DNA from: an uncultured Pseudobdellovibrionaceae bacterium
GTDB lineage: Bacteria; Bdellovibrionota; FAC87; UBA2466
DNA: 64,000 nucleotides
Direction: 5' to 3'
Assembly (NCBI GenBank): GCA_964611895.1
Contig: CAZTDN010000019.1
Span: forward strand, 577 to 64,576
The first letter of the stretch is position 1, and each line of letters opens with the position of its first letter. The notes under the pieces are model-generated. The model worked only from the letters and a program-made list of their open reading frames with translations. It did not search any database and was not told the DNA's origin. A program made the position numbers and the translations under genes. Shown piece after piece: positions 4,507 through 64,000 of the stretch.

Positions 4507-6024
4507 TTGGGGGCTGTGGGGTTAGTGAGCGAAGAACAGTTGCATTCTTGCGTTCAGGCAGAAGGGTTCGAACTGCTCTCAGAAGTCGGGCGGGGGGCGT
4601 CGGCCCGTATTCTGCTCGCTCGAGAAATTTCTACGGGCGATAAAGTCTGTCTTAAACTCTTCCATCCCCGGCTTTTTCAAGAAGCCACCAGCCAGGCGCG
4701 CATACGTCGGGAAATGGAGCTCTCTTCGAAGCTTAAACACCCCCATATTCTAGCCGTGCGGCGTTTCGTTTTGGACACACCGTCGCCGTATATGGTGTTG
4801 GACTATGTTCCCGGAAAGAACCTAGAGAAGTTCCAAGCAAGCCTTCCTTATATTTTGCCCGAAGTCGCAGTGCAAATTTCGATACAGATTCTTAAAGCGC
4901 TTGAGTATTCCCATCGCAAAGGGATAGTGCACCGCGATCTTAAACCGGAAAATGTTTTGGTGCGTGAGGATGGCCAAGTGTTTGTTGCGGACTTTGGCTT
5001 AGCGAAGGGCCGCGATCACGCCGCGACAAATCTTTCCAATACTTTGGTGGGGTCAGTAGATTACATGTCTCCCGAGCAGGTAAAAGGAGACTCCGTCGGT
5101 CCGCAATCCGATCTCTTTTCGTTGGGGGCGGTGCTGTATTTCTTGACGACCGGAACTCGTCCGTTTTCGCGCGGCTCGATCGTGGCAACTCTGGAAGCTG
5201 TAAAAAACGCAGCTCCTGAGAGTCCGCTGAAGAGAAACCCGAAAATCAGTAACCGCTTGTCTGCCTTGATTCTTAAAGCGATGGCGCGGGACGTATCGGC
5301 TAGGTTTCAGAGCGCAACTGAAATGCGAACGGCGCTCGAAGGGTACTTAGCTGATACGGGCCTAAGCGAGAATACCTTCAATTTGCATGAGTGGATGGTG
5401 GATCCCTCCGCCGTAACCATGGACGCACTGGGGCGATGCGTGGAAACACTGACCGCTCGCGCGGAAAAGTTACTGGCGCAAAGGGAGTGGGATGCCTTTA
5501 CCGAAGTGCAATCGCACTTGAGTATCAAAGCCCCGGAAAGCGAATCGCTCAGGCGATTATCCACACTTTACCGAAGTACTCGTCGAGCCAAAACTCGTCC
5601 GGTCTTGCGGTGGTCCTTGGTTGCGGTCTGGTTGTTAGTCATTGTGGGAGCAGCTGTTTTTTACTGGCCGAAAAACCCACAACCCCAGAGTCTTCCATCT
5701 CCTGTTGTCGCAAATCCAGCCCCCGTCGAAGTCGCGCCAGCGGTTCCCGCTGAAACCATCATTCCCGATCCTAAACCTGCTCCCCACAAGTCGCCCGCGG
5801 CTGCCAAACTAAAGGCACCTTCCGCGGGTGCCGGGACGGTTTGGTTTCGTCTCCCCCAAGGCACTGAGGTTTATTGGAATGGGTTTCCGGTCGACCCGGA
5901 AAAACCGCTCTATAACCAGAAGTTCGGTTTGCACGATCTTAAAATGATCCGAGAGGGTTTTGATCCAATCACGGCCAAAGTTGAAGTGTCCGCCTCAAGG
6001 CCAACCATTATCAAGGTGAACTAA
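4507..6024 (+). CDS. Ser/Thr protein kinase (Hanks-type) with C-terminal TM helix and Pro-rich extracytoplasmic tail
   Basis: HRDLKPENVLV catalytic loop, DFGLAK, SPEQ. TM segment WSLVAVWLLVIVGAAVFYW followed by PQPQSLPSPVVANPAPVEVAPAVP. Start is TTG at 4507 (GTG 4522 is an alternative). Confidence 0.85.
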   Translation: MGAVGLVSEEQLHSCVQAEGFELLSEVGRGASARILLAREISTGDKVCLKLFHPRLFQEATSQARIRREMELSSKLKHPHILAVRRFVLDTPSPYMVLDYVPGKNLEKFQASLPYILPEVAVQISIQILKALEYSHRKGIVHRDLKPENVLVREDGQVFVADFGLAKGRDHAATNLSNTLVGSVDYMSPEQVKGDSVGPQSDLFSLGAVLYFLTTGTRPFSRGSIVATLEAVKNAAPESPLKRNPKISNRLSALILKAMARDVSARFQSATEMRTALEGYLADTGLSENTFNLHEWMVDPSAVTMDALGRCVETLTARAEKLLAQREWDAFTEVQSHLSIKAPESESLRRLSTLYRSTRRAKTRPVLRWSLVAVWLLVIVGAAVFYWPKNPQPQSLPSPVVANPAPVEVAPAVPAETIIPDPKPAPHKSPAAAKLKAPSAGAGTVWFRLPQGTEVYWNGFPVDPEKPLYNQKFGLHDLKMIREGFDPITAKVEVSASRPTIIKVN

Positions 6025-6026
6025 TC

Positions 6027-7829
6027 ATGATGTATCTCAAACTTTCCAATCAGGCGCCGCTTGGGATCGATAAAGCGGTTTTTACTGTGGGGTGGGGAAG
6101 GGCATTTGACGCTTCACTGGGTGATGGACCCGAGACCCTCTGTTTTTCCATTCAAAAAGAAGGCGAAACCTACCATCTCATTCCGGGCAGCGAACGCCTG
6201 CGCCTTAATGCGCGGATTGTTTCCGGAGTGGAACCTGTGCAGAGTTTGGATCGGATAAGCTGGCGGGAAGAAGCGGCGGTTTTGCTCACCGACATTCAGG
6301 TCGGAGAGACCGGCGAAAAACGAGACACTAGTCTAGAATGTCTGCGCATTTTGGAACAGTTGTCCATCCACTTGGAAAACTCCGAATCTCTGACGGGGGC
6401 GCTTCGCCAAGCGCTGAATGCGATGGCGAACGTAGCGGGAGCGCAGGGCGGAAATCTAGTGTCCGAAGTCGACCCCGGAAGTGGTTGGGAGTTGCTTGCA
6501 AGTTTTGGTTTGTCGTCAGGCGGCACTGCAGAAGAAAATCCCCGCAAGACCTTGCTCAGCCACACGGCGGTAAACGAAGCGATTCGTTCCCGGAAGCCAG
6601 TTTATGTCGAGAGCATCATCGGCCATGACTGGGCTGATCAGGCATCCATCTTAGGGGCCCGCATTTTTTCCCTAGCTTGCCTCCCTCTGGTTGTCGGAGA
6701 GCGTGTCTTTGGGTGTGTGTACTTGTTTACCAGGACGCCAGGAAAATCTATCCATCGGGATTCGCTCGCATCACTTTCCATTTTGGGCACACAGGTTGCC
6801 TTGCTTTTGGCTACCCGAGCTCAGTTGAATCGCGAGCGACAACGCAATCGGGAATTCAAAAACAAGTCGGGCGAAAAGAGCTTTGTGTACAACCGCGCCT
6901 TGGAAAATAGTCCGATGAAAGCTTTGGACCTGCGCATCTCAAAGCTTGCCCCAGCAGATCTAAACTTACTGGTCCTCGGAGAGACGGGTAGCGGCAAAGA
7001 GGTGATTGCTCGAGAACTCCATTTGCGGGGTGTCCGAAACAATGGGCCTTTTGTCGCTGTGAATTGCGGTGCCATTCCGGCAAGCCTGATTGAGTCTACG
7101 TTATTTGGATTTGTGAAAGGCTCCTTTACCGGAGCGACTCGCGATCAGGATGGGAAGTTTGTACAGGCAAACGGGGGGACGTTGTTTCTGGACGAGATTG
7201 GGGATCTCCCTTTGGATCTCCAAGTAAAGCTCTTGCGGGTTTTACAAGAGCGGAGCGTGGAACCGGTGGGCGGTTCCAAAGCAGTGCCAGTAGACTTTAA
7301 ACTGATTGCTGCCACTCACCAGGATTTGGAAGGGCTGGTCAAGAGTGGAAAGTTTCGACAGGATCTTTATTACCGGTTAAATGGCGCGTCTCTAGTGATT
7401 CCCCCTTTGCGTGAACGGACAGGCGATATTTTGCTTTTAGCGGAGTATTTTTTAGGCTTTTCGGGGATGGATCGCCGTTTTTCAATAGATGCAAAGCAGC
7501 GTCTATTACAGCATTCGTGGCCAGGAAATGTTCGGGAGCTGGAGCAAGTCGTTTGTCGGGCTGCAGCGCTTGCTGAGGGGGAGGAAATTTCGCCCGAGGA
7601 CCTGGAAATGGGAGTTTTGGCCACTTCAGGAAACGCCTCCAACTCTTTGGATATGGCCGATCTTCCTTCAGGATTGAGGGAAGCCCAAGAAACATTCACT
7701 CGGGAATTTGTTAGAGCTGCTCTGGAACAAAGTGGTGGCATGCGATCTAAAGCAGCCGCTCGGCTGGGAATTTCAGAGCGCACATTGTACCGCATTCTCT
7801 CCACTGCATCGTCTGACACTGCGATCTGA
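6027..7829 (+). CDS. sigma-54-dependent transcriptional activator with putative FHA-like N-terminus (central domain not classified)
   Basis: AAA+ sigma-54 interaction domain motifs GETGSGKEVIARELH, ESTLFGFVKGSFTGA, GGTLFLDEIGDL, and a C-terminal HTH (AARLGISERTLYRIL). An N-terminal ~90 aa beta-rich module (FTVGWGRAFDASLGD...LNARIVSG) resembles FHA; the segment between it and the AAA+ core is unclassified. Starts 2 nt after the kinase stop. Confidence 0.85.
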   Translation: MMYLKLSNQAPLGIDKAVFTVGWGRAFDASLGDGPETLCFSIQKEGETYHLIPGSERLRLNARIVSGVEPVQSLDRISWREEAAVLLTDIQVGETGEKRDTSLECLRILEQLSIHLENSESLTGALRQALNAMANVAGAQGGNLVSEVDPGSGWELLASFGLSSGGTAEENPRKTLLSHTAVNEAIRSRKPVYVESIIGHDWADQASILGARIFSLACLPLVVGERVFGCVYLFTRTPGKSIHRDSLASLSILGTQVALLLATRAQLNRERQRNREFKNKSGEKSFVYNRALENSPMKALDLRISKLAPADLNLLVLGETGSGKEVIARELHLRGVRNNGPFVAVNCGAIPASLIESTLFGFVKGSFTGATRDQDGKFVQANGGTLFLDEIGDLPLDLQVKLLRVLQERSVEPVGGSKAVPVDFKLIAATHQDLEGLVKSGKFRQDLYYRLNGASLVIPPLRERTGDILLLAEYFLGFSGMDRRFSIDAKQRLLQHSWPGNVRELEQVVCRAAALAEGEEISPEDLEMGVLATSGNASNSLDMADLPSGLREAQETFTREFVRAALEQSGGMRSKAAARLGISERTLYRILSTASSDTAI

Positions 7830-51475: not shown

Positions 51476-52828
51476 GTGAAATTGCGGCTGCTTGTTTTGT
51501 TTCAAATTGTCTGTGTCGCTTGGAACAGTTTTGCCGAGAAACCGATTGTCGATGGGCCAGCGACACGGGTGCATTTCCTGCTGGTGGCGGACATCGAGGC
51601 GACCAACATTGGAAAGAGCACCGTACGCGACGTCGAAAGATTTGAGTCCCTGATCCGAGGCTACTTTGAAGATGAAAACCATCCCGAGCGGCGCAGCCAG
51701 TTCACTCTGACCAAAATGGGGTTCAGCGGCACCGTTTCCCCCCAGGATGTGATTGCTTATTACAAAGCGGTACAAATGGTTTCTAGCGTGAACGAAGCCA
51801 TTGTTTTTTATTACTCGGGCCATGGCGATTCGAATGCGCGGGGTGGGCAAAACTTTACCATGAGTGGAGGGGTATTGCCTCGGCCCGACTTTCGATTGGC
51901 TCTGGAAGGTTTGGGGGTGAAATCGCTCATCATTTTATCGGATGCGTGTAGCCCCGAATCGCGAGAGACGTTGGCCCGAACCCAGCCAAAGTCGTTTACC
52001 GGAGACTATTTAAATCGAAAAGCACCGGCGATGGCCTTGAGTGAAGAACAGCAGTTTATTTTTCATGATCTCTTTGTGCGGGGACAGGGGACGGTAGATA
52101 TAAACTCTTCGAGTTATGGGGAATATTCCTGGTCGAGCGAAAATTTGGGTGGCCTGTTTACCAGGAGATTATTTGATCTGATTTTGAATAGTGAGCTGGA
52201 GAAGTTGGATTCGAATAGCGATGAGTTTCTTTCTTGGGAGGAGTTTTTCCCGAGGCTGAAAAGAGACGTGTCGGATTATTTTCAAACGATGAAAGAGTCT
52301 GCGCCGGATGATGCGCCGATCAAGGAGTCTAAAGCTCAGACTCCCTATGCATTTACCTATCCAAGCTACCGCGATTTAGCTGGTTCGGTAGCAGGCAGTC
52401 CTCTGCAACCGGGGGTCTTGCAGCTGGTTAGCTATTCGCAGGCCTATGACTACCGTGTTTCGGGGTTTACGGGGCATTTGGTCATGTTTCAGCTTGTGAC
52501 GAGTCAGCCGGTTGCCAAGATAGAAGCTTTGGATGTGGCGATCCGATTCCGTCAGCAGGACGGCACTTTTTTGCCTAGTACAGCCGTGTCGCCCGCTTTC
52601 AAAGCTGTAGATGGAACGGTGGCGGCTTACGCTACCATTGTGATACTGGGCAAAAACTTCAACCGGGGCACGTTTTTCGTTCCCAACCTGGCAATTTTTC
52701 CCAATCCATTGCCGAACGGGACCCAAGTCACGCTCACCCCCGTTCTGCAGATTTTCACTCGGGGGCCACTGCGCCTGATCGCGCAGCACGATTTGCGAGA
52801 CATCGTCTTTGTTCAAAATGATCCGTAG
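51476..52828 (+). CDS. secreted caspase-like (peptidase C14) protein with EF-hand-like Ca-binding loop and C-terminal beta-rich domain
   Basis: Signal peptide. Caspase His-Cys dyad in correct order and spacing (IVFYYSGHGDS...LIILSDACSPE). DSNSDEFLSWEE matches EF-hand loop positions 1, 3, 5, 12. Confidence 0.6.
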   Translation: MKLRLLVLFQIVCVAWNSFAEKPIVDGPATRVHFLLVADIEATNIGKSTVRDVERFESLIRGYFEDENHPERRSQFTLTKMGFSGTVSPQDVIAYYKAVQMVSSVNEAIVFYYSGHGDSNARGGQNFTMSGGVLPRPDFRLALEGLGVKSLIILSDACSPESRETLARTQPKSFTGDYLNRKAPAMALSEEQQFIFHDLFVRGQGTVDINSSSYGEYSWSSENLGGLFTRRLFDLILNSELEKLDSNSDEFLSWEEFFPRLKRDVSDYFQTMKESAPDDAPIKESKAQTPYAFTYPSYRDLAGSVAGSPLQPGVLQLVSYSQAYDYRVSGFTGHLVMFQLVTSQPVAKIEALDVAIRFRQQDGTFLPSTAVSPAFKAVDGTVAAYATIVILGKNFNRGTFFVPNLAIFPNPLPNGTQVTLTPVLQIFTRGPLRLIAQHDLRDIVFVQNDP

Positions 52829-52877: not shown

Positions 52878-52953
52878 GCGGGCGTAGCTCAGTTGGTAGA
52901 GCATCAGCTTCCCAAGCTGAGGGCCGAGGGTTCGAACCCCTTCGCCCGCTCCA
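52878..52953 (+). tRNA. tRNA-Gly (anticodon CCC), 76 nt with encoded CCA
   Basis: Hand-folded cloverleaf. Acceptor GCGGGCG/CGCCCGC, D-arm GCTC-AGTTGGTA-GAGC, anticodon stem TCAGC/GCTGA with loop TTCCCAA, T-arm GAGGG-TTCGAAC-CCCTT, discriminator T, CCA. Confidence 0.9.
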
Positions 52954-53019: not shown

Positions 53020-54279
53020 ATGCGAAATCTGTTCTTTGGTCTCATAACGACGGTGGTTTTGAGTAGCTGCAATACACGGCTAATTTTGCAGGGGGCCGGG
53101 GCGCCATCCTCAGGAGAGAGGTTGCCCGGCAAATACGCCCCCGCTACGCCCGATACAGAAGAAAATACAGATCCACTCAAGCTTGTTTCGATTTATATGT
53201 CGGGATGGTCGGCTTGCGGTCTAACTCCGGAAAAGCGGACCTACTGCTGGGGAGCGCGTCCTCCAGGGTGGCGAGACGCGGGCTACGATCTACCTCCTTA
53301 TGTCCTCGCAAGTGAGTGGCGATTTGAGTCCTTGGCCAGTACCGGCGATGCTGCTTGCGGCCTAGACATGAACGGCAAGGCCTTTTGCTGGGGAGAAAAC
53401 GAATTCGGAGCACTGGGAATTGGTAAGATAGGCAGAGAGTATAGCTCTCTCTCCCCCAAAGAAGTCAGTGGAGGGCTGCTTTTTTCGACGATAAAGGGAA
53501 GCGGCAGTCACTTTTGTGGGCTCACTCTAAATGACCAAACAGCCTACTGTTGGGGTGCTAACACTGACGGCCGCCTCGGTGTAGGCGATGAACTACCTCG
53601 TGGAACCCCCACCGCCGTCGCAGGAGGAATGCGTTTCAAAACCCTCGATGCTGGTACTTTTACTTGTGGAATAGCTTTTGATGATCGGCTTTATTGTTGG
53701 GGAAATACGGCCTACATTACTGTTCGATTTGGTTCGTTGGCTTCTGAGTATATAAGCAACGTTCCAATGTTGTTTGAAATGCCAGAGAGGCTAGTCTCTA
53801 TATCCGTGGGAAGTGCTAGCGCGTGTGGATTGACCGAGGAAGGTAAAGCCTATTGCTGGGGATATGGGGTGCACGGTCAACTCGGGTCAGGTATTAATGA
53901 CGTGACCAAGATTCCTCAGCCTGTAAGCGGGGGTTTGCGTTTCTCAGACATTCAACTCGGCAGCTATGCAAGCTGGGGCCTCACTTTGGACGGAAAAGTT
54001 TATCTCTGGGGAATGAATATACTCGGCGACCTCAACCCGGCCATGAGTGCGAATGAAATTACGAATGTACCTATTGAGGTTCCGACCGCGCTGCGGTTCT
54101 CTCGTATTTCGGGAGATGCAGCTGGAGTGTGCGGCCTTGAGAAGGACACCGGTTTGCTCTATTGCTGGGGCAATAGCTATGACTCAAAGCTATTTGTTAA
54201 GCAAGCAGCGGCACCTGGCAGTCAAGTAGGAACGCACGTTCCGACGCTGGTTCGCATTCGAAAAGAACTTTTGAATTAA
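53020..54279 (+). CDS. RCC1-repeat (beta-propeller) lipoprotein
   Basis: Lipobox VLSSCN. Six or more repeats of the CGLTxxGxxYCWGxNxxGxLG pattern (e.g. CGLTPEKRTYCWGA; CGLDMNGKAFCWGENEFGALGIG; CGLTLNDQTAYCWGANTDGRLGVGD; CGLTEEGKAYCWGYGVHGQLGSG). Confidence 0.7.
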   Translation: MRNLFFGLITTVVLSSCNTRLILQGAGAPSSGERLPGKYAPATPDTEENTDPLKLVSIYMSGWSACGLTPEKRTYCWGARPPGWRDAGYDLPPYVLASEWRFESLASTGDAACGLDMNGKAFCWGENEFGALGIGKIGREYSSLSPKEVSGGLLFSTIKGSGSHFCGLTLNDQTAYCWGANTDGRLGVGDELPRGTPTAVAGGMRFKTLDAGTFTCGIAFDDRLYCWGNTAYITVRFGSLASEYISNVPMLFEMPERLVSISVGSASACGLTEEGKAYCWGYGVHGQLGSGINDVTKIPQPVSGGLRFSDIQLGSYASWGLTLDGKVYLWGMNILGDLNPAMSANEITNVPIEVPTALRFSRISGDAAGVCGLEKDTGLLYCWGNSYDSKLFVKQAAAPGSQVGTHVPTLVRIRKELLN

Positions 54280-54295
54280 AGCCGCTCGCGATACC

Positions 54296-54775
54296 TCAAG
54301 CCGCTTTTTGAACGAGATCGATGACTTTGCCCTTGAGCGAAGCTTTCGCTTTTACAAATGCGTTAGCGATGTAGTCCAACTCCTCCTTGGTAAAGGCTTT
54401 TTTCATTTTGGGAAACATTTCCATCTCTTCTTCTTTTACATGATGCTCGACGATCTCTCTCAAGGTGGTAATTCGTGCGATAAACTCATGGGCCTCTGTG
54501 GGGGTTGCGTCGAGCTTGCTCAGTAAAAACTTGATCAATGAGTGTTCCTCCGTACCTTCGTAGCCAATTTCCAGAGTGCGTTCGGTGACCCTGAGGGAAG
54601 GGTAGAGTGCTTTTTCTTCTGCTTCGGCATGATGCGTGAGTTCGGTGCGGAGCGCATTGTAAAGGCGCTCTCGAGTCTGAGTAGACTTTTCAGTAGTTCT
54701 TTCTATCCGGGTGAAGAGCTCACCTACTTTTCTATGATCTGTTTTAATCAAATTGAAAATATTTTCATTCTTCAT
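54296..54775 (-). CDS. hemerythrin-like (HHE cation-binding) domain protein
   Basis: DHRKVGELF...HHAEAEEKALYP...EHH..EE..MFP pattern of His/Glu ligands of hemerythrin-like domains. 159 aa. Confidence 0.7.
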   Translation of the reverse strand: MKNENIFNLIKTDHRKVGELFTRIERTTEKSTQTRERLYNALRTELTHHAEAEEKALYPSLRVTERTLEIGYEGTEEHSLIKFLLSKLDATPTEAHEFIARITTLREIVEHHVKEEEMEMFPKMKKAFTKEELDYIANAFVKAKASLKGKVIDLVQKAA

Positions 54776-55025
54776 GGGGTTCTCCTTTTACCTACGAAAA
54801 AGTAGTACGAGCAAAACGACAACTAAGATCAAACTTGCGCTGGGGTAGTAACCGTATTGCCAGGCTGAGGAATAGGGCCACACGGGTAACAGGCCGATCA
54901 CTAATAGAACTAACAAAACCAGAAGTATTGTATGCACCCTGTCCCTCCTTTGTTATTCACCTCATAAGCAACTCGCGTGCCGACCACTCCTAGGCTTGAA
55001 GGCCTAGAATCTGTTGCGCATTGAA

Positions 55026-55715
55026 TCAGTGAGCTGCGTGAGGATAAGAGAAGCTGTGCGCATTTGGGCCCAGATCTAACAGGGTTTCCACTTCAAAGCG
55101 GAGTGTGGTTTGCTTTGGAAACTGGAACTCGGATCGGCGTAACCCGCGCTCGATCAGCAGCGTTTGGACGTTACGGTAGGGATGGTTCAACCAGGCAAGC
55201 CTCTTTTCCAGGCTCTGCGGCAAAAAAGTTTCAAAGTCAGCTTGAGGTTGAGTGGGCATTTCCGTTGCAGCGAATTGGAGCTCGTTTCGCACCGTACTGA
55301 ACGGGTACTCCTCTACTCGAGAGGATAAACCCGCCTCCACGGGATTGCGGAACACGTACTTATATGCGTGCGAGTAATAGATACCGTACGTGATCAGCGA
55401 CCAGTGGTACCTGGCTCCGAAAATCCGATTGATTCGTCCGGAAACGCGACCGATTTCCTTGCTTACTTCCCTGAGAAAGTAGTTCATGCACTCTCCCAAA
55501 TCCGCCTCGGGAGTCGATGCGATTAAGTGAAAGTGATTCGACATCAAGACAAAGGAGTGGATGTTCCAGCCGTAGCGATTGCGTACGATTTCGAGTATTT
55601 CTTTGAAGATTCTCCAAACGACATCGGTTGGTAAATAGAATGGCTCGCGGTTATTGCAGCGGGCAGTGACATGATAGGGAAACTGTTTTGTTCGATACAA
55701 GGGTTTTCTTGGCAT
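55026..55715 (-). CDS. REP-associated tyrosine transposase (RAYT) / IS200-like Y1 transposase family protein
   Basis: HuH motif SNHFHLIAS and catalytic-Tyr region YKYVFRNPVEAGL (Y..Y..NPV characteristic of RAYTs/COG1943). Flanked by REP-like palindromes. Confidence 0.75.
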   Translation of the reverse strand: MPRKPLYRTKQFPYHVTARCNNREPFYLPTDVVWRIFKEILEIVRNRYGWNIHSFVLMSNHFHLIASTPEADLGECMNYFLREVSKEIGRVSGRINRIFGARYHWSLITYGIYYSHAYKYVFRNPVEAGLSSRVEEYPFSTVRNELQFAATEMPTQPQADFETFLPQSLEKRLAWLNHPYRNVQTLLIERGLRRSEFQFPKQTTLRFEVETLLDLGPNAHSFSYPHAAH

Positions 55716-55752
55716 ATGCGGTCTTTAGCAGAAGCCATGCCAACTCGAGGTA

Positions 55753-55796
55753 GGTACGCGGTACCTTTTCAACAAAAGGTACCGCGTACCGGATTA
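55753..55796. repeat. REP-like perfect hairpin (17-bp arms GGTACGCGGTACCTTTT / AAAAGGTACCGCGTACC, 4-nt loop) followed by CGGAT
   Basis: Read directly: ggtacgcggtacctttt caac aaaaggtaccgcgtacc at 55753-55790, 38 nt upstream of the RAYT start codon. Confidence 0.65.
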
Positions 55797-56216
55797 AAAG
55801 GATGCTCGGCAGGCGTTGAATAGCCGATCGTCTACTAGGTACTGTGTTTTGTAATAGGCCGCCCAATACTGGTTTAGGTTGGCCAGGTAGTTTTTGTAGC
55901 TGGCGTCCTTACGCTGTTTCAGCGGGGCGATCTGGCAGTCGAGCTTTGCCCATCCGGTAGCAAAGTTTTGATAAATCGCATTGCTCGTAATCCAGAGCTC
56001 TAGGTATCGGCCTTGGTCGGCTGGCTGAAAAACATGGATGCCTTCACTAAATTGATAAACAGCCAGGTATTGAGTCGAGTCGCCATGCACTTGTAACGGA
56101 ATAGCGATGTGTGAACCGTCGACATAGTAGGTGAGTCCATTGAGGGTTGCCGGCGCCCACTGGGCCGAAGCAAGGGTGGTCAAGGCGGCAAAAGCCAAAG
56201 TGAAAAGTCTTTTCAT
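55794..56216 (-). CDS. small secreted protein bracketed by REP elements
   Basis: Signal peptide MKRLFTLAFAALTTLASA from internal ATG 56216. ~140 aa, Tyr/Trp-rich. No homology recognised. Confidence 0.45.
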   Translation of the reverse strand: MKRLFTLAFAALTTLASAQWAPATLNGLTYYVDGSHIAIPLQVHGDSTQYLAVYQFSEGIHVFQPADQGRYLELWITSNAIYQNFATGWAKLDCQIAPLKQRKDASYKNYLANLNQYWAAYYKTQYLVDDRLFNACRASF

Positions 56217-56372
56217 TTTCGTTTCTCCTGGTGAATAAATCGGTGGGTTGCCACCGCGGTACACCGGCACCTTGTGCAACGTCGATGCCAAGTCTCAAGG
56301 GCAGAAAGCGCAGCCAAAACCCCGGAGAATCCTTAGTTTTGTATCAAAGCTGAGATAGTCGTTCTCAAAAAA

Positions 56373-56445
56373 GGTACGCGCTACCTTTTCAAGAAAGGTA
56401 CGCGCTACCTTTTTCACGAAAGTAACCGCGTACCGGATAACGCGG
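56373..56445. repeat. REP-like cluster: two direct copies of AAAGGTACGCGCTACCTTTT plus an inverted partial copy GTAACCGCGTACCGGATAACGCGG
   Basis: 56373-56389 and 56397-56414 are near-identical units (each a small hairpin). 56422-56445 shares GCGTACCGGAT with the 55778-55796 copy. Confidence 0.55.
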
Positions 56446-56524
56446 AGCGGTCGAGTTAAGCGTCGGAAATGCCGATGTTTTAGAGCTGGGGTTCTCCCCC
56501 ACTTTAAAACGCTGAGGAGATTTC

Positions 56525-57940
56525 ATGCGCTTGCTTTGTGTAGTTTTTGGAGTGTTGTCGGCTTCGCTCGCTTTGGCCAAGAGTAACTGCCACTTTGAAC
56601 GGCTATTGCCCGCAGCACCTGTGGCGCCTCCAAAACCCGTCACTCCCCCTAAACCCAAACCCGCACCCATGCCCTCTCCCGCTCCAGCGCAACCCGATCC
56701 CGGACGGCGTCTGCCCGATCGGTTTCCCGATCGCCCGGTGAAGCCCACAACCGATCCCCAAAACATCAACCCGTTTGGTCTGTACAAAGACAAAAGCAAT
56801 GCACGTTTTTTGGGGCAAGTCCCAGAGCCCGTTAGAGAAAACTGGTCGCGGAGCTTCGAGGAAGAGCGCACCCGCTTGCAAGCAGAAGCAGCAAAGCTGG
56901 GCGTAACCGACCCTTCGCAGCTAATGCCCAAACTCTTTCAAAATAAATATAAACTCCTCGAAATCGAAGAAAAGCATCGGCCGGAAATCGAAAAACTGCT
57001 CCGCCGAATGGCGTCAGAAGTCTATGGGGAGGACGCCACGCAGTTCTTAGAAATCCGGATCAGCAATCAGCTCCCCGCATGGCCAGAAATTGAAAAAGCA
57101 CCCGCTTCTAGCCGCCTGGGGCAGTGGTTTGCGCAGCTCAAGAAGCGGTTTTCTCGAAAGGGCAGGCAGCAGATACTATCCCAAAAACAAGACATCGAGT
57201 TTCTGAAATACCGTCGAGAGCTGTACAACATGCTCTCCCAAGCGCACGGCTACTACGGTGTGAAACGTTTTTACTCAATGTACGAAAAAGAACTGCGCGC
57301 GCTCGATCCCGAACTCCCCGAACTGCTTCGCAACGACCTTACCCTTGCCATGTATGGTAATAGCCTCATGATCCAGGGCATGCCACAGGGGCATGTCCCG
57401 CGGTTTAAGAACCGGCAAGCGATGGAAGGCATGGTGCATGGCCGCAATATCACCGAGGTGGCGGCCGAGAGAAAACAAGACGAAGACGGCTCAACCTATC
57501 TCCAAATGGGCCATCGCCGTGGAACGGCGGTAGGGCACAACTCCCACGATGCAGCCCACGAAACGGCAAAGGCCGGGTTCAAGCTCGCCACCGCCTCAGA
57601 AGCTGTTGTGCGCTCCACATTGACCGCTACAGAGCGAAAAGTTCTCGATGAGGCGACCAATACCCCTCTTGCCGAAATTCGTCAGGGAGTCTTTGGGCCT
57701 TATCTCGACGTCACCTTGAGAAAATCCATTCGTGCGTTGGTGCATCCGAATAACAGCGCGCAGCAGCTCACGGATGCGCAATACCTCACTGTAATCGACC
57801 GCGTTTTTAGTGAGTTGCCGCCAGCTCAGTTTAATTTGTTTATTGAAAAAGCAGCGGATCCGGGTTTTGCCGCAAGTCCGGAAGCCGTGGCGGAATTGCG
57901 CAATACACTCGGAGATTTTGATCTGTTTCCAAAGCCATGA
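56525..57940 (+). CDS. secreted Pro-rich protein of unknown function, translationally coupled to the giant ORF
   Basis: Signal peptide MRLLCVVFGVLSASLALA, then PPKPVTPPKPKPAPMPSPAPAQPDP linker and a ~380-aa helical domain. Stop TGA overlaps ATG 57937 (ATGA). Confidence 0.55.
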   Translation: MRLLCVVFGVLSASLALAKSNCHFERLLPAAPVAPPKPVTPPKPKPAPMPSPAPAQPDPGRRLPDRFPDRPVKPTTDPQNINPFGLYKDKSNARFLGQVPEPVRENWSRSFEEERTRLQAEAAKLGVTDPSQLMPKLFQNKYKLLEIEEKHRPEIEKLLRRMASEVYGEDATQFLEIRISNQLPAWPEIEKAPASSRLGQWFAQLKKRFSRKGRQQILSQKQDIEFLKYRRELYNMLSQAHGYYGVKRFYSMYEKELRALDPELPELLRNDLTLAMYGNSLMIQGMPQGHVPRFKNRQAMEGMVHGRNITEVAAERKQDEDGSTYLQMGHRRGTAVGHNSHDAAHETAKAGFKLATASEAVVRSTLTATERKVLDEATNTPLAEIRQGVFGPYLDVTLRKSIRALVHPNNSAQQLTDAQYLTVIDRVFSELPPAQFNLFIEKAADPGFAASPEAVAELRNTLGDFDLFPKP

Positions 57941-60900
57941 TTCGACTGATTTACATTTTGCTCCTCATTGCCTGTGGGACACTTGTGGTGTCTTCGCGCG
58001 CAGAGAACGAAGCTAGGCCCCCCGAAGGGGACCGCGATCCCGTGATCCGATTTCCTCAGTGGATGGAAGATGGCGAGGTGTTATTGCCCGAGGAAGAAAC
58101 CGATGCCTGGAAGCCTAAAAAGTATTTCCGTCGGTCTCCTCTGCTGGGAACGTCCGCCACGGAGGAGCTCTACAACATCGATCGCATCATCCAAAGAGAC
58201 TTTGAGGCACAGGACCTAGAGAAACACTGGATAGAGAACTATACAAAAGTGGCCGACGTCGCTAAACCGCCGGTGCGGGTAAACATGGCCAACGTCGGCG
58301 GGACAGTGTTTTTAGAAAACATATTGGCGTCTGAAAACCAAAAGGCTCGCCGATTTGACTCTATTCGATTCGCGGAAAGGCACCTTGAGGACATTTTGAA
58401 TGCTCTCACCAAGCCTGGCGATCCGCCTATTTCAGTCATTTTTGGAAACGGTTTCCGATCTCGAAAAATAGAAACCAAGGTTGATCTGCTCCGTGGTGGC
58501 GTGATCGAAATCGAGCCTGGGGCATTGGTCGACACCAAGAATTTGAGTGAACTCGCCGCGCTTTTTGCAACGGAAATCGCAAAAATCAAACCTGAGTTTG
58601 AGGCAAAGCACGTGGATATGTTGCGCGATTTGGATGTACCGAAGGATGTGCTTGCTAGCGAGTATATTCGAAAGCGAATTGAAGGCATGGGCAAGGGCGG
58701 GAGTGAAGAGATCCTGAACGAGAAACGCAAGCTGCTCGATGCGTATCGTCTGGCCTTGCAACAAGAACACTACGCCTTGCGCAAGGAAAACACCGACGTC
58801 AAAAGGCTAATGTCCGAAACAGGATTCAAAATAGATGTCGATGGAGTAACGGAACTGCGCGTGCGCCAGGCAGTAGACGCAGTCGATCGTCTCACCGGAA
58901 GTCCAGATGGAACGGGGAGTGAAGGGGGATTCGATCCCTGGGGAATCGTTGGCCCCAAACGCAGTCGTTCAGAAATAGAACTGCTCGGAGCCAATCCAAA
59001 GGGCCGTATCCGCAGTGCTCTTGAGCTGATCTTTGGGCGCGCTTCCGCCCAGAACACTCCTCAAAAAAGAAGCACGCAGGCGATGGAACTCGAGTTTGTG
59101 GAAAAGTACGTGCTCTGGCTAGAGAACCGAGAGCAGGGCAACTTTGCTCGCCTCAAACACCGCGGACAACCCCTCGATCCCAGTCACGACGCCATCCGTG
59201 CAAACGCGCGCTTTGCTCAAAAATTTTACTTCGGTCCGGAGATGCAGGACATCGCCTTAATCGGGGGGATTGGGGTTATTGCCTTGGGTGGCTACATCAA
59301 GGGCGTTGATGTCTTGAGTAGTATTGGCACGGGCGTATCAACCACGTGGGATACGGGAAAAATGGGTGCGTGGAATCTGTGGAGCTATATTTCCAGTTTT
59401 TTTACTTCGTCCAACCCAGGTCCAGCCCCGGTCGAACAACCTCGAGGTCCCGGTTTTCTGGATCGAATAGGGCAGTGGATCTCCAATGTCGGCGAATGGT
59501 TTGGGGGACTGTGGCCCAAGGGCGAGCCCAGTACTTCGAAGTGGGCTTGGAAAGATTATCTTCCCCCCATGCCGGAGTGGGTTGGCGAAATGGCCACATG
59601 GACAGGCAAAACCGCGTACTACCCCTTGGGCGTGATCGAGAGCCAAGTCCTATCGCCACTGGCGGAGTTTGCGACTCGACAGGGATGGCCCGGTGTGGCA
59701 GCGGTGGGGGCAGTGGCAGCTGCGTACGCTCTAGAGCGGTTGGTGGCAGCGCCCATCCAAACGCGTTCTGCCCGTTTTTTTCATCGTTACCGTATAAACC
59801 TGCAGGAGCAAGCGCACCTATTTAACCGACTGCGAAAAGTCGTCAATGCGGGGCCGCCTTCGGTAGAGGACATCGCCGATCTCGCCAAACATCAAAACCT
59901 CGCGACGGAATTCATCGAAGCCGGAAACGGGGATAAGTACGAGTTCCTGCGCAATCGCCTCGTGTATATGGTGCTTTTTGGAAAAAACGCCGCTTGGCAC
60001 CAGTATGCCAGCAAAAAGCGAGAGTATGTTTCAAATTTATACAACCAGCTTATCGAGGCAGTCGAAACGGAACTCAAAAACCAAACCGGAAAAGATCGCG
60101 TTCCCGCCCGCAAAGTCAAAAAACTCGCCCGCCAGATACTGGCGGAGGACTATATCGACCGCGGTTCCAATACCCCGGTGTCAGGGGCACAGCAGCTCCA
60201 GGGTATAGAGGGCCATGCTCAGAAGACCCAAAAACTCTTGTACTTTATGTTTGGAGCATTGGCTCAGAGAGCCGCGGAGACCAATACGACGCTCTTGCTC
60301 CGGCTCATCGACACCAAACTCTCAGAGCCGGGGCTCACCTCCGCTGATAAGAGTGCGTTGCGTGAGCAGTTATTGGCGTTGAGTTCTCTGCCACATTTGC
60401 GCAAACAAGTGCAATCTAAGTACATCGCTATTTGGCGCAAGCATTTTCCTCAAGACGTGTTGGGCACCGTGCATTCCGCCCGGCAGCTCCTCGAGCTGCA
60501 TAATGGCAAGGCTGTCCCCGAATTTGTGTTGCGATTACGGGCGCGGGAGCTTGCTACCGAAAAACTCCCCCCAGCGGAACTGGCCGAAGTGTTGCGCGCC
60601 TTGGTCGCCATGCGGATGCATACCGATGCCGCACGATTCTTGTACAAGCACCTTCCCGAAGTCGCTGCTTATAGCCACGACGCTCAAGTCCCACCAGAGC
60701 TCAGGGCAGCGACGCGCAAGAGCATTGCCACTCTTTTGGCTCAATGGCGGTCGAATTACGAAGAAAAACTTTTTCCGATCAAAGAGGCTGGAAAACGGAA
60801 TTTCTTCAAGATCGCTCTGCTTTTGCGAGCAGCCTATCTCTCGGATCCCAAAACTCGCTTTGCCTTCGGAACCCACCTGCGTGAAGCGGTAGACACGGCG

Positions 60901-63900
60901 ACTCTTTCTGCGTCGGACCTCGCTTTGAAGTGGTACTCCAAGCGCATCAACCGCACGGAGCTCGATCCGAGCAAAGATGCCGTGGAACAAATCGAGACCC
61001 TGCACCGAGAACACGATGTGGAAAGCCGTTTCCTTGCCGAGCTGTTTCTTTCGAACTTGGAAAAAAATCCAGAGATCTTACCCAACAAAACAGCAGTGTT
61101 TCGAGTCCTGGGCAGCGAACAGCCTTGGCATAATCTCAAATCCGTGGCGCAACAAAGTGGGGCTCCGTGGGAAGCAAAGCTCTTCCAGCGGTATTCCGAT
61201 CTCTCCAAAAAGTACCCGTCCTATAACTACAACCCCGGCCATTCCGAAAAAGTGCAGCGTCTTTTGCTCCGGCGTTTTGAGCAACTCGCTCCCACCGCAG
61301 AGTTGAGCGAAAGGCTTTTGTTGTGGCGCATGATGGCCGGTCGAGGGCCGACCGGAGTGACCGATGCTTACATGGAGAAGCTCGTATCGGAAATGACTCC
61401 GGCTGAGGCGAGTGGGATCTCGCTCAAGGCTCTGGAGAATGGGTGGATTTGGGATCCTCAGATTCGTTCGACGCTCTACAAAAAGTACGCGGAGCCGCGC
61501 CTGGGTCCACAAACTTTGGTAGAGGTCGATCGCGAGCAGTGGAAAAAAACTGCACAACAGCTCCAATCTCACAAGGCAGAACTGCCGTCGATAGAATCCG
61601 CCGAAGCAAAGCAGGAAAAGCTCGGAGAGATTTTGGCTACTTTCGATTCCATGGAGTTTGATGTTCCCAGCGAAAAATCCCGTTTTCGTGCGGAGGTGGA
61701 GGCACAGCTTCTCAAGCCAGATGAGGTCGATTTCGGCAAGGTGATTGAGCCCTTCAAAAAAGGCGGGCACTTTATGGATGCGCGCAACGCAGTTATCCAA
61801 GCCGAGCTGGAAAAGATTTCGGGATACTTTCCGGAGTCGGGCTACGCGGCGGCACACTTGTTTGATTGGGTGAGCCACCGTCTCCAAACGCGGGAGAGCG
61901 AAGCGCGCGGGGTTAAAGATCGTTTTGTCTCTCGAAACACTGAGGAAAAAGATCTCGGGTTTTCGGTGGTGAACGAAATCATCGAAGAAGCCAGTGGTTG
62001 GGATCCAGTAGACAAATGGAAACTGATTCGTTGGTTGCGAGGCGCTGCTGGGCCACCTGAAATCATCGTGAAGAAAATGCGCCGCATGGGGCCCGAGACG
62101 GTGCGGCGTCTGTACAGCACTTTGCCCACGCTCGTGCGCAGCACGTTTATCAGCACCTTGCTCGGAGCCCCCAAAACAGGGTTGCTAGAGAACAGTGGGA
62201 AAAATCTCTACTACGAACAGGTTCTCAACGAGATCATGCCCCGTGGAGAAAAAGCGGCCAATATCGCCAATGATCTGCTGGAGAGTTTTTTGGTCGCCAT
62301 GGAAAGAGTCTCCAATCCCGCAAAACGCCGCGCGGTTCTGTCGTACTTGCTCGCGCACCCAGTGGAGCAATCCGATACGGGAACCGTACTGAAAAACCTT
62401 CTCGAGTCCTATGGAGTTCCCGGGATTAAGCTCGGGCAAACCATGGCCGCGGGAGATTTTCTACCGGAGCATATCCGCAGCAAGCTTGCCGACCTGCACG
62501 ATCGGGCCAAGGAGCCTTATCGTCATGAAATTTTTGAACGATTGAAAGAGACTCTAAAAACCGAACATATCGAGCCACTATTTGTGGTGGAGGATCTGCG
62601 CGGATCGGCGTCGATGAAGTACACCGTCTCTGTCCTAGACGGAGAAGGGAAGCGTCATGCTATCCAGATCAAGCGCGAAGAGGCCGAAGCAGCGCTGCTG
62701 CGCAACTTCGAAGAGCTGCGCATTGTGGTGGACGAGCTTATCAAGAAGTCACCCCAGCTGTATTCCTTTCTCAAGGGCATGGTGCGGGCGACACGGGATG
62801 CGATCCGGCGTGAGTTGAGTCTGGTGCGAGAGGGACAGAAGGCGGATCTGGCCAAGGCTGAGTACTTAAAGCTTCCCCTCAAAGACAATGTCCTGGTCGA
62901 AGTTTCCCAAACCACTCCACTCATTGAAAAAGTTGCAAACGATCCGGCTGCTTTGTACCAGTTGCGAAGCTCGGAGTTTTCGGAAGGTCGAAGTATCAAT
63001 GCATTCCCGCCCTCGGTGCAAGCGCAGATGGCCGAGTTTGTCCTCACAGCCGAATCGGAAATTCTCTTCCCGCAGGACGGTCGATCCACGCACGCGGATC
63101 CCGATCGTCATCCGGGAAACATCCTCTGGGCCGTGGAAGACCAGGGAAAAGAGCTCTTGTACCGTTTTCAGCCCATCGACTGGGGGCAGCAGTTCCAGTT
63201 GACCGAAGCCGATCGAAACCGGGTGGTAGAACTCGTAGCGTTCTCGCAGATTTTTGAGAATGTCGGTGCGGAGCCCGCTCTTGTGGACCGGCTCATCGCG
63301 TTTGTGGGGATCGAGCCGAGCCAGCAGGCGGCCTTGCGCAAAGCGCTGAGCGGGTACTTTCCCAATACAAACGCAAAGCCTCGCTCGATGCTAGGCCCGT
63401 ATTACTTTCTCTTGTCGGCGCTAGAAGGGGCGGGGATGCGGTCGAATATGCTCAACTATGATCTGATCAACGGGATCTTTCGTCTGCAAGCCTACGAGAG
63501 CAAGACGCAGAATAAGAACTACCGATCTCCGAAGAAAGTGTTTACCGATCGGGTGATGAAACGGGTGAGTCAATTAGTCGACGCGACGGGCCCCAAAATG
63601 AGCCGCATTCGGTATGCATTGAACAATTCCAATCCGACCAAGTGGAAAGTCGCCCTACGCAATCAGGGCTTGCACGCCCAGGGCAAGCTCTCCGTAGATA
63701 AGTTTCTGGCCGAAATGGGAGTCTCCTCAGCCACGCGCGACCGCGCGTTGGCGGGCGTGAAACCGGAGCGGGTGGAAGCGTTGTCCACTGCCGAGGGCCT
63801 GACGCACTGGTTGGGCGAAGTGTCCACCAACCCCAAACTCCGCGCTTCTGATCGTGCGCTCATTGGGCGGTGGCTAGCGCACCCTCGGATGGAGTCGGTG

Positions 63901-64000
63901 CAACGCAATCTCCCTCTGCTCACAGCCGAAGATGTGCGTGCGGTCATGAACTCCTCTCAAGTGCTCTCTGAGATTAGCCAAGCCAAGGAAAAGACGCGTT
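57937..64000 (+). CDS. giant ORF (>2021 aa, 3'-truncated by window end): lipoprotein-like signal, ~1450-aa unknown helical region, then ABC1/UbiB-type atypical protein-kinase-like domain
   Basis: Codon-by-codon read from ATG 57937 in frame 1 finds no stop to base 64000. N-terminus MIRLIYILLLIACGTLVV. Kinase-like motifs GVPGIKLGQTMAAGDFLPEHIRSKLADLHDRAKEPY, KRHAIQIKREE, HADPDRHPGNILW near nt 62400-63350. No competing ORF >270 aa on either strand. Confidence 0.75.
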   Translation, partial: MIRLIYILLLIACGTLVVSSRAENEARPPEGDRDPVIRFPQWMEDGEVLLPEEETDAWKPKKYFRRSPLLGTSATEELYNIDRIIQRDFEAQDLEKHWIENYTKVADVAKPPVRVNMANVGGTVFLENILASENQKARRFDSIRFAERHLEDILNALTKPGDPPISVIFGNGFRSRKIETKVDLLRGGVIEIEPGALVDTKNLSELAALFATEIAKIKPEFEAKHVDMLRDLDVPKDVLASEYIRKRIEGMGKGGSEEILNEKRKLLDAYRLALQQEHYALRKENTDVKRLMSETGFKIDVDGVTELRVRQAVDAVDRLTGSPDGTGSEGGFDPWGIVGPKRSRSEIELLGANPKGRIRSALELIFGRASAQNTPQKRSTQAMELEFVEKYVLWLENREQGNFARLKHRGQPLDPSHDAIRANARFAQKFYFGPEMQDIALIGGIGVIALGGYIKGVDVLSSIGTGVSTTWDTGKMGAWNLWSYISSFFTSSNPGPAPVEQPRGPGFLDRIGQWISNVGEWFGGLWPKGEPSTSKWAWKDYLPPMPEWVGEMATWTGKTAYYPLGVIESQVLSPLAEFATRQGWPGVAAVGAVAAAYALERLVAAPIQTRSARFFHRYRINLQEQAHLFNRLRKVVNAGPPSVEDIADLAKHQNLATEFIEAGNGDKYEFLRNRLVYMVLFGKNAAWHQYASKKREYVSNLYNQLIEAVETELKNQTGKDRVPARKVKKLARQILAEDYIDRGSNTPVSGAQQLQGIEGHAQKTQKLLYFMFGALAQRAAETNTTLLLRLIDTKLSEPGLTSADKSALREQLLALSSLPHLRKQVQSKYIAIWRKHFPQDVLGTVHSARQLLELHNGKAVPEFVLRLRARELATEKLPPAELAEVLRALVAMRMHTDAARFLYKHLPEVAAYSHDAQVPPELRAATRKSIATLLAQWRSNYEEKLFPIKEAGKRNFFKIALLLRAAYLSDPKTRFAFGTHLREAVDTATLSASDLALKWYSKRINRTELDPSKDAVEQIETLHREHDVESRFLAELFLSNLEKNPEILPNKTAVFRVLGSEQPWHNLKSVAQQSGAPWEAKLFQRYSDLSKKYPSYNYNPGHSEKVQRLLLRRFEQLAPTAELSERLLLWRMMAGRGPTGVTDAYMEKLVSEMTPAEASGISLKALENGWIWDPQIRSTLYKKYAEPRLGPQTLVEVDREQWKKTAQQLQSHKAELPSIESAEAKQEKLGEILATFDSMEFDVPSEKSRFRAEVEAQLLKPDEVDFGKVIEPFKKGGHFMDARNAVIQAELEKISGYFPESGYAAAHLFDWVSHRLQTRESEARGVKDRFVSRNTEEKDLGFSVVNEIIEEASGWDPVDKWKLIRWLRGAAGPPEIIVKKMRRMGPETVRRLYSTLPTLVRSTFISTLLGAPKTGLLENSGKNLYYEQVLNEIMPRGEKAANIANDLLESFLVAMERVSNPAKRRAVLSYLLAHPVEQSDTGTVLKNLLESYGVPGIKLGQTMAAGDFLPEHIRSKLADLHDRAKEPYRHEIFERLKETLKTEHIEPLFVVEDLRGSASMKYTVSVLDGEGKRHAIQIKREEAEAALLRNFEELRIVVDELIKKSPQLYSFLKGMVRATRDAIRRELSLVREGQKADLAKAEYLKLPLKDNVLVEVSQTTPLIEKVANDPAALYQLRSSEFSEGRSINAFPPSVQAQMAEFVLTAESEILFPQDGRSTHADPDRHPGNILWAVEDQGKELLYRFQPIDWGQQFQLTEADRNRVVELVAFSQIFENVGAEPALVDRLIAFVGIEPSQQAALRKALSGYFPNTNAKPRSMLGPYYFLLSALEGAGMRSNMLNYDLINGIFRLQAYESKTQNKNYRSPKKVFTDRVMKRVSQLVDATGPKMSRIRYALNNSNPTKWKVALRNQGLHAQGKLSVDKFLAEMGVSSATRDRALAGVKPERVEALSTAEGLTHWLGEVSTNPKLRASDRALIGRWLAHPRMESVQRNLPLLTAEDVRAVMNSSQVLSEISQAKEKTR

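Follow-up and report, generated by a model that had tools for sequence, protein, structure and literature searches.

We analysed a 64,000 nt stretch of DNA from an uncultured Pseudobdellovibrionaceae bacterium (Bdellovibrionota; NCBI GenBank assembly GCA_964611895.1, contig CAZTDN010000019.1, positions 577 to 64,576 of the forward strand), referred to here as the window. A very long open reading frame (ORF), the giant ORF, starts at 57937 and is still open at the last base of the window; a gene for a Pro-rich signal-peptide protein precedes it (Table 1). On sequence grounds we assign its product, the giant protein, with high confidence to an uncharacterised family, found mostly in Bdellovibrionota, in which a signal peptide, an M48-peptidase-like domain and an ABC1/UbiB-like kinase module follow one another in a single polypeptide.

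A giant gene open at the end of the window

Translation of frame 1 from ATG 57937 to base 64000 gives 2021 sense codons and no stop, in agreement with the preliminary description of this DNA, which had reported a frame of more than 2021 codons still open at the window end. Because an in-frame stop lies 5 codons 5' of this ATG, which is the first possible start, the start of the gene is well defined. Given the base composition of the window, 2021 open codons would occur by chance with a probability of ~1e-40, and the runner-up open stretch, in any frame of the window, has 1006 codons. The GC content of the first, second and third codon positions (GC1/GC2/GC3) follows an even pattern along the giant ORF, like that of neighbouring genes, bearing out the steady coding signal noted earlier.

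The total length and the true stop, which the preliminary description had left to be found, come from a public protein of 2373 residues (P0003) that is identical to all 2021 residues encoded in the window; the gene of 2373 codons should therefore end near 65058, ~1058 nt past the window. The same sequence is carried by three independent assemblies: P0003, P0001 (which differs at 5 positions) and a metagenomic contig, L002, which is 99% identical and covers residues 1420–2373. Over 1807 nt, L002 and the window differ by eight synonymous substitutions and one non-synonymous substitution, a ratio that indicates purifying selection on the giant gene. A word-indexed search also found a full-length collinear homologue, P0002, with 47% identity and 2396 residues as called. 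We conclude from these comparisons that the giant ORF is a real, functional 2373-residue gene under purifying selection.

Table 1. Positions of the giant ORF, its predicted domains and motifs, and associated genes (window coordinates, unless a locus is named).
Feature	Position	Strand	Basis
Giant ORF, residues 1–2021 of a 2373-residue protein	57937..64000	+	Open frame; P0003 identity; P0002 homologue; L002 substitutions
Predicted signal peptide, residues 1–22 (MIRLIYILLLIACGTLVVSSRA, followed by EN)	57937..58002	+	Read from sequence; relatives' equivalents
Degenerate M48-peptidase-like N-terminal domain, residues ~135–435	58339..59241	+	Subclade profile against relatives
TEIAK (T212-E213-I214-A215-K216) in the HExxH columns	58570..58584	+	MAFFT alignment
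Gly/Ala-rich hydrophobic segment, residues 439–457 (IALIGGIGVIALGGYIKGV)	59251..59307	+	Kyte-Doolittle
Second, weak hydrophobic segment, residues 587–605 (VAAVGAVAAAYALERLVAA)	59695..59751	+	Kyte-Doolittle
Helical middle domain, residues ~1030–1260 (approximate), including PSYNYNPGHSE and WIWDPQIRS	61024..61716	+	Exhaustive hmmsearch
ABC1/UbiB-like atypical kinase (ATPase) module, residues ~1397–1880; ABC1 core ~1475–1770	62125..63576	+	
KxGQ motif G1496-I-K1498-L-G-Q1501, ABC1-specific N-terminal-extension signature	62422..62439	+	Alignments
A-rich-loop equivalent G1556-S-A-S1559-M-K1561, with family-specific Lys	62602..62619	+	Alignment
β3 strand Q1577-I-K1579	62665..62673	+	Alignments
Catalytic loop D1721-P-D1723-R-H1725-P-G-N1728	63097..63120	+	Alignments
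DFG-equivalent I1747-D1748-W-G-Q1751	63175..63189	+	Alignment
Start of the C-terminal extension (residues ~1900–2373, mostly beyond the window)	63634..64000	+	Subclade comparison; AlphaFold2 model
Pro-rich 471-residue signal-peptide protein	56525..57940	+	TGA overlaps the giant ATG as ATGA
Partner gene	L002 2862–4112; L014 14222–15505; L003 2870–4036		

An ABC1/UbiB-like kinase module

The whole giant protein had no match in Pfam, and a sequence search of the PDB returned nothing useful; the kinase domain was found by searching with a sub-sequence and with a profile. Residues 1441–1888 scored 21.6 bits against Pfam ABC1 (PF03109), below the gathering threshold of 22.9 bits, while the NCBIfam UbiB model TIGR01982 matched residues 1475–1766 (E=1.3e-9, 37.1 bits; equivalog cutoff 487.55). 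The Pfam match was rejected as evidence by itself. As a control, the canonical Ser/Thr kinase encoded at 4507–6024 in the window scored 31.4 bits on PF03109; an ordinary Ser/Thr kinase thus outscores the module, and a weak match to this model is not discriminating. Matches to LepB_N and LepB at the catalytic loop (E 0.2 and 0.68) were non-significant and were treated as generic kinase-loop similarity.

The assignment is carried by profiles and by alignment. A profile built from four domain sequences (the giant protein, P0002, P0011 and P0012) retrieved solely UbiB/ABC1 proteins among 5.8 billion sequences, with E-values down to 2e-13, and matched the solved ABC1 protein Rv3197 in the PDB (E=1e-4). 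When the kinase modules of the family were aligned with canonical UbiB (36 sequences), the invariant residues K1498, Q1501, S1559, E1626/E1632, D1723/H1725/N1728 and D1748 fell on ABC1 signature positions. The module has the three-dimensional fold of ABC1 proteins, a protein-kinase-like core with an N-terminal extension. An ABC1/UbiB-type domain, as first proposed, is thus supported at residues ~1475–1770.

The motifs on which that proposal was based (GIKLGQ, IQIKRE, DPDRHPGN and IDWGQ) are all present, but two of them had been misread. DPDRHPGN is not an insertion variant of the catalytic box: in the 36-sequence alignment it matches HADMHPGN column for column, with the canonical His replaced by Asp1721 and no 2-residue insertion. 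The Lys of IQIKRE, for its part, stands two residues past the canonical, otherwise invariant β3-Lys column (VAVKVQ); that column is Gln1577 here, with Lys1579 at +2. Among the 47 family modules, the β3 column holds Lys in 27 and Gln in 11, and Lys occupies +2 in seven, including those of the giant protein's own subclade. Both residues of KxGQ are present in all 47 and in canonical UbiB. GSAS1559 aligns with the canonical A-S-A-S, its Ser being retained throughout (47/47), and K1561, in a position that is Ala or Gly in canonical UbiB, is found in 43. In the catalytic loop D1723 and H1725 are each kept in 46 modules and N1728 in 42 (with Gln in four more); D1748 is likewise kept in 46, as is Q1751, a family-specific residue that is Ile or Met in canonical UbiB.

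A family of signal-peptide M48–ABC1 proteins

We searched 1.84 billion representatives exhaustively with HMMER, using a profile of residues 150–1290 (E<=1e-3), and obtained 42 proteins, almost all of 1400–2600 residues. A signal peptide and a kinase module with D[PT]DRHxGN are found in nearly all of them, and HExxH at residues 127–354 in 15. The shared plan, which recurs in ~40 clusters of 1500–2600 residues, is a signal peptide, an M48 domain, a helical middle domain and then the kinase, whose family signature is KxGQ, GSASxK, D[PT]DRHxGN and DFGQ. Three members (P0099, P0102 and P0115) exceed the Pfam thresholds for M48 and ABC1, and the precomputed annotation of P0099 already lists Peptidase_M48 and ABC1. 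The kinase also occurs as a stand-alone version of 455 residues (P0011, 44% identity). Word-indexed searches found P0002 as the sole full-length relative; when run with the kinase region alone, such a search omitted both the near-identical P0001 and P0002 (~62%), maybe as an effect of candidate selection.

Scanning one GTDB genome per species with patterns of the kinase subfamily gave ten loci: eight in metagenome-assembled genomes of Bdellovibrionota (Bdellovibrionales, Pseudobdellovibrionaceae and Bacteriovoracaceae), one in Elusimicrobiota and one labelled 'Pseudomonadota'. In these the kinase lies near the C-terminus of ORFs of 1500–1834 residues with a signal peptide, and Pfam Peptidase_M48 (N-terminal) and ABC1 (C-terminal) both score above threshold. 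A scan of the GTDB species representatives with giant-specific peptides revealed no close homologue of the giant protein, and no second family member or paralogue was found elsewhere in the window. A PADLOC scan of the giant protein and both flanking proteins for defence systems was negative.

The architecture had been put forward as undescribed. It is indeed unlike that of characterised ABC1 proteins, and we found no paper on signal peptide–M48–ABC1 proteins or on exported UbiB-like domains; it is not unique, however, as it recurs in at least 40 clusters. The fold and both domain families are known already, and what is new is their combination, the predicted compartment and the features of the giant subclade described below.

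A probable degenerate M48 domain and a shared middle domain

The preliminary description recognised nothing in the ~1450 residues that precede the kinase. This region now resolves into a degenerate M48-like domain and a middle domain, both common to ~40 clusters. Direct comparison with Pfam gave no M48 match to the giant protein, and alignment of its N-domain with the distant M48 domains of clades A and B by hhalign was non-significant (15 columns, E=0.12). When ~50 sequences were searched with a profile of the N-domains of the giant subclade, it matched N-domains of relatives that bear HExxH, at full-sequence E-values of 1e-13 to 1e-8, and these relatives exceed the threshold of Pfam Peptidase_M48 (PF01435). 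By this transitive route, the N-domain of the giant protein appears to be homologous to M48.

In a MAFFT alignment of 20 family N-domains, the HExxH columns read HEMTH, HELTH or HELSH in 13, TEIAK in the giant protein, LALAK in P0002 and QSLSK in P0089. The surrounding scaffold, G-L-x-x-T-x-N-x-[DS]-E-[LF]-A-x-V-[IL]-A, is conserved in the joint alignment; the upstream PNA motif is also lost in the N-domains of the giant subclade, and the giant protein has no HExxH anywhere. Replacement of HExxH by TEIAK, together with loss of PNA, means that the N-domain cannot coordinate the catalytic zinc in the canonical manner. We conclude that the M48 catalytic motif has been lost in the giant protein and that its N-domain is probably, as read from these alignments, a dead M48. 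Two small signal-peptide proteins, P0103 (185 residues) and P0110 (173 residues), are homologous only to residues ~135–255 and have YKLAS and YQIAQ in the HExxH columns, which suggests that the dead-protease module also occurs by itself, as a separate secreted protein.

Most of the 42 matches of the exhaustive search have in common the middle domain, which spans about residues 1000–1260 of the giant protein; they cover profile positions ~880–1110, corresponding to residues ~800–1200 of proteins of 1500–2100 residues. A wider stretch of the giant protein, from ~590 to 1270, is shared with P0089, P0090 and P0091 (2172–2627 residues).

The giant subclade and its downstream partner

These three proteins form, with P0002 and the giant protein, a giant subclade marked by loss of HExxH, a C-terminal extension of ~470 residues and a coupled downstream gene. 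The extension (residues ~1900–2373) is common only to these members. In an AlphaFold2 model it comprises a small helical domain followed by five helices of 24–31 residues over ~2032–2207, a conserved and moderately hydrophobic stretch; the model is of low confidence, with a predicted local distance difference test score of 57.6 overall and 76–88 for ~1905–2010. The extension has no Pfam match, and its model gave no significant fold match.

A downstream gene overlaps the stop codon of the giant gene in L002 (416 residues), in L014 (427 residues) and in L001, where only its start is on the contig; in L003 a homologue of this gene lies two genes away from the stand-alone kinase. The giant gene is translationally coupled to the downstream gene, which, from its recurrence at four loci, is a conserved partner. 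In the partner proteins, a signal peptide is accompanied by a 'CPW' motif and a transmembrane segment. Those of L003 and L014 also contain an ATLF-like zincin domain, whose HExxH reads HELAH in L003 (Pfam ATLF, E=1e-8) and HEMGH in L014. In the partner from the organism of the window, the aligned segment is GGWRGH and the zincin motif is lost. Here, therefore, both protease-like modules of the pair have lost their catalytic motif, and this paired loss looks like co-ordinated pseudo-enzyme evolution.

The upstream gene had been proposed as a co-transcribed partner. The overlap of its stop with the giant start stands; a conserved gene pair does not, and it is the downstream gene that is conserved instead. 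The Pro-rich protein has no recognised domain and no homologue in related loci, is alone in its 90% cluster and shows no similarity to the Pro-rich N-terminus of P0002. It was consequently dropped as a part of the conserved unit.

Predicted export and topology

At the N-terminus of the giant protein, R3 and a hydrophobic core are followed by an AXA-like site, SRA/EN, so that cleavage by signal peptidase I after SRA is likely. Equivalent signal peptides are found in P0002 (from a TTG start 44 codons upstream) and P0089, and most family members have signal peptides of the signal peptidase I type. The signal peptide of the preliminary description is accordingly retained, but its lipoprotein reading, based on a lipobox-like LIAC, was rejected. 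The PROSITE lipobox rule (PS51257) places the Cys at positions 15–35 after an uncharged hydrophobic stretch; here the Cys is at position 13 (14 in P0002), inside the hydrophobic core, the pattern is unmatched and the AXA-like site follows. We infer that the giant protein is exported by Sec.

Two possible membrane helices had been suggested farther along the protein. The first, the Gly/Ala-rich segment at 439–457, is strongly hydrophobic (mean Kyte-Doolittle value of 1.82 over 19 residues), weaker in P0002 (1.41) and has counterparts in only some relatives. The second, at 587–605, contains Glu and Arg and is not kept in P0002; it is unlikely to be a membrane helix. Across the family, zero, one or two hydrophobic segments lie between the signal peptide and the kinase. 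At least 12 members have none after the signal peptide, all clade A/B GTDB loci among them, and yet their signal peptides are classical and their kinase modules intact. Since these relatives combine a signal peptide with no later hydrophobic segment, the kinase-like module probably functions beyond the cytoplasm of the producer, whether it stays in the envelope or is delivered to another cell.

Several points weigh against an exported, working kinase module. The calls of signal peptides and hydrophobic segments come from inspection by eye and from Kyte-Doolittle windows, and outside the cytoplasm it is not obvious where an ATP-dependent domain would obtain ATP. One strong hydrophobic segment follows the N-domain here and in many relatives, and could return the kinase to the cytoplasm. 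The canonical β3 Lys is missing in the giant subclade, so that the module could be a pseudo-enzyme. Any connection with predation, finally, derives only from where the relatives occur.

The main rival is accordingly a type I, receptor-like topology. The signal peptide would be cleaved, the pseudo-M48 domain (24–438) would be a periplasmic sensor, segment 439–457 would be a single transmembrane helix and the ABC1-like kinase would lie in the cytoplasm, using cytoplasmic ATP for signalling or for lipid or quinone homeostasis. Such an arrangement has a limited but appreciable probability. It would account for the strong segment that follows the N-domain in the giant protein and in ~20 relatives and for the weakness of the second segment and its absence in P0002; the downstream partner, too, consists of a signal peptide and one transmembrane segment, and it is established that ATP is found only in the cytoplasm. 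It is, however, difficult to reconcile with the members that lack any such segment. Moreover, the segments are Gly/Ala-rich and usually have more Lys and Arg on the N-terminal flank (three against one in the giant protein), which opposes the positive-inside rule for an N-out/C-in helix. The variable count and this flanking bias together make a poor fit to a conserved type I anchor. If the kinase were cytoplasmic, the giant protein would be an unusual receptor-like ABC1 protein, less striking but still undescribed.

A catalytically dead scaffold, in which neither enzyme-like domain is active and the protein has a structural role in the envelope or at the surface, appears distinctly unlikely. 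The loss of HExxH from the M48 domain and of the zincin motif from the partner would suit such a role, as would the change of the β3 Lys to Gln and the sub-threshold Pfam ABC1 score. The other catalytic and nucleotide-binding residues (K1498, Q1501, S1559, E1626, D1723, H1725, N1728 and D1748) are nevertheless kept in 42–47 of the 47 modules and are all present in the giant protein, whose module retains every nucleotide- or Mg-binding and catalytic residue except the canonical β3 Lys; K1579 at +2, or the family-specific K1561, could stand in for it. The kinase region is, in addition, the best-conserved part of the protein (55–90% identity to P0002). This pattern of conservation fits an active enzyme better than a scaffold.

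We consider it very improbable that the giant protein is a fused or extended UbiB orthologue in quinone biosynthesis. TIGR01982 is the best named match, and the window encodes respiratory complexes such as alternative complex III and cytochrome oxidase, but the 37-bit score is far from the equivalog cutoff and the module has only 16–20% identity to canonical UbiB. The signal peptide of the protein, its different catalytic-loop signature and the lack of a C-terminal transmembrane pair of the UbiB type also speak against this reading, and the family forms a separate group with invariant residues of its own, K1561 and Q1751. Least credible of all, to a degree that we regard as negligible, is an artefact (misassembly, multi-gene read-through or a decaying pseudogene): the contigs are metagenome-assembled and very long ORFs are sometimes chimeric, but three independent assemblies share the sequence, P0002 is collinear with it end to end, substitutions are 8:1 in favour of synonymous changes with even codon-position composition, and the domain order is identical in about 40 clusters.

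Comparison with known systems

To our knowledge, all characterised ABC1/UbiB proteins (UbiB, COQ8A/B, plant ABC1Ks and Rv3197) are of medium size and oriented towards the cytoplasm, matrix or stroma. Their known ties are to the handling of quinones and lipids, and what they do biochemically has been a matter of debate for years. In ~40 clusters, a related module lies behind a Sec signal peptide, fused to M48, in lineages known for killing bacteria. If these proteins are exported, the ABC1 fold would extend to a new compartment, possibly to inter-bacterial attack. The shifted β3 Lys, loop Lys1561 and DFGQ also provide natural variants for structure–function work on UbiB-type proteins.

Compared with COQ8A/ADCK3, COQ8B, yeast Coq8 and bacterial UbiB (all PF03109), the module has only 12–20% identity, DPDRHPGN rather than HADxHPGN, a shifted β3 Lys and family-specific Lys1561 and Gln1751. 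It is situated at ~1400–1880 of a 2373-residue signal-peptide protein, whereas the known members are of ~450–650 residues. UbiB proper, of ~540 residues, ends in a transmembrane pair, and the giant protein has different C-terminal regions. Bacterial effector kinases such as NleH1 and OspG, which are type III-secreted, are minimal kinases of the eukaryotic type; they are not ABC1-type and are not known to carry a Sec signal peptide.

In the M48 metalloproteases BepA, LoiP and YcaL, the M48 domain likewise follows a signal peptide. The giant N-domain appears to be homologous to the M48 domains of its relatives but differs from the periplasmic and membrane metalloproteases of this family (PF01435; also HtpX) in having TEIAK for HExxH, in having lost the PNA motif and in being invisible to Pfam. 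Unstudied relatives from Bdellovibrionota (for example loci L004, L007, L008 and L012; proteins P0099, P0102 and P0115) resemble the giant protein in domain order, kinase signature and middle domain; they are shorter (1500–2100 residues), in most cases retain HExxH and stop a short way past the kinase, and no ATLF-like partner accompanies them in the loci examined. Rv3197 and MSMEG_1954 (PDB 5yjz, 5yk0-2, 7cy2, 7cyr and 7cz2) are stand-alone proteins of ~440 residues with no signal peptide, M48 domain or long helical regions.

A possible function

COQ8 has recently been shown to act as an ATPase in the extraction and chaperoning of isoprenoid lipid intermediates of coenzyme Q (PMC13418538), and Rv3197 and MSMEG_1954 bind nucleotide and macrolides, according to the titles of their PDB entries. 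By analogy with these proteins, the ABC1-like module of the giant protein, once exported by Sec and working outside the producer's cytoplasm, would most likely be an ATP-driven handler of a hydrophobic membrane ligand, which it might bind, extract or modify; activity as a classical protein kinase seems less likely. In this scheme the dead M48 domain would serve for binding, and association with the membrane would fall to the Gly/Ala-rich segment and the C-terminal helices. This exported, lipid-handling mechanism is tentative and is put forward as a possibility. The account as a whole, comprising gene, family placement and mechanism, is one in which we have modest confidence.

In a more speculative form, which we regard as rather improbable, the giant protein would be a Sec-exported UbiB-like ATPase or kinase used as a weapon by a predator or competitor, entering the target membrane by means of the Gly/Ala-rich segment and the C-terminal helices. 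Once there, it might draw on ATP of the target cell to act on isoprenoid quinones or other lipids of the membrane, which it would extract, sequester or phosphorylate; the ATLF-like partner could serve as a co-factor or as an immunity-like protein. Were this true, the ABC1/UbiB fold would for the first time have a role outside the cytoplasm or between bacteria.

Neighbouring genes

A gene for a REP-associated tyrosine transposase (RAYT; NCBIfam NF047646, E=1.6e-19) at 55026–55715 (−) is flanked by palindromes resembling repetitive extragenic palindromic (REP) elements at 55745–55794 and 56365–56438. The pair GGTACGCGGTACCTTTT/AAAAGGTACCGCGTACC forms a perfect 17-nt hairpin at 55753–55790, and two related copies are located at 56365–56438, just 5' of the Pro-rich gene. 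The preliminary description had noted that the giant gene sits next to this REP/RAYT element; no link between the two could be detected.

Farther upstream, tRNA-Gly(CCC) (52878–52953) is flanked by genes at 51476–52828 (+) and 53020–54279 (+), and the proteins encoded beside it are a caspase-like Peptidase_C14 signal-peptide protein and a lipoprotein-like RCC1-repeat (β-propeller) protein. The GC content falls to 0.47–0.50 over 54000–56500. An island encoding exported or unusual proteins may extend from tRNA-Gly to the giant gene. At 54296–54775 (−) there is a homologue of the PA2171-family ribosome-binding persister protein (NCBIfam NF053874, E=3.5e-30, under the curated cutoff).

The Ser/Thr kinase that served as the control above is of the eukaryotic type, and its gene (+) is followed directly 3' by one for a GAF-sigma54-activator-HTH regulator at 6027–7829 (+). 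A 636-residue protein encoded at 43999–45909 (−) has J-domain (DnaJ) matches at ~48–86, 125–206 and 354–410, an unusual multi-J-domain architecture.

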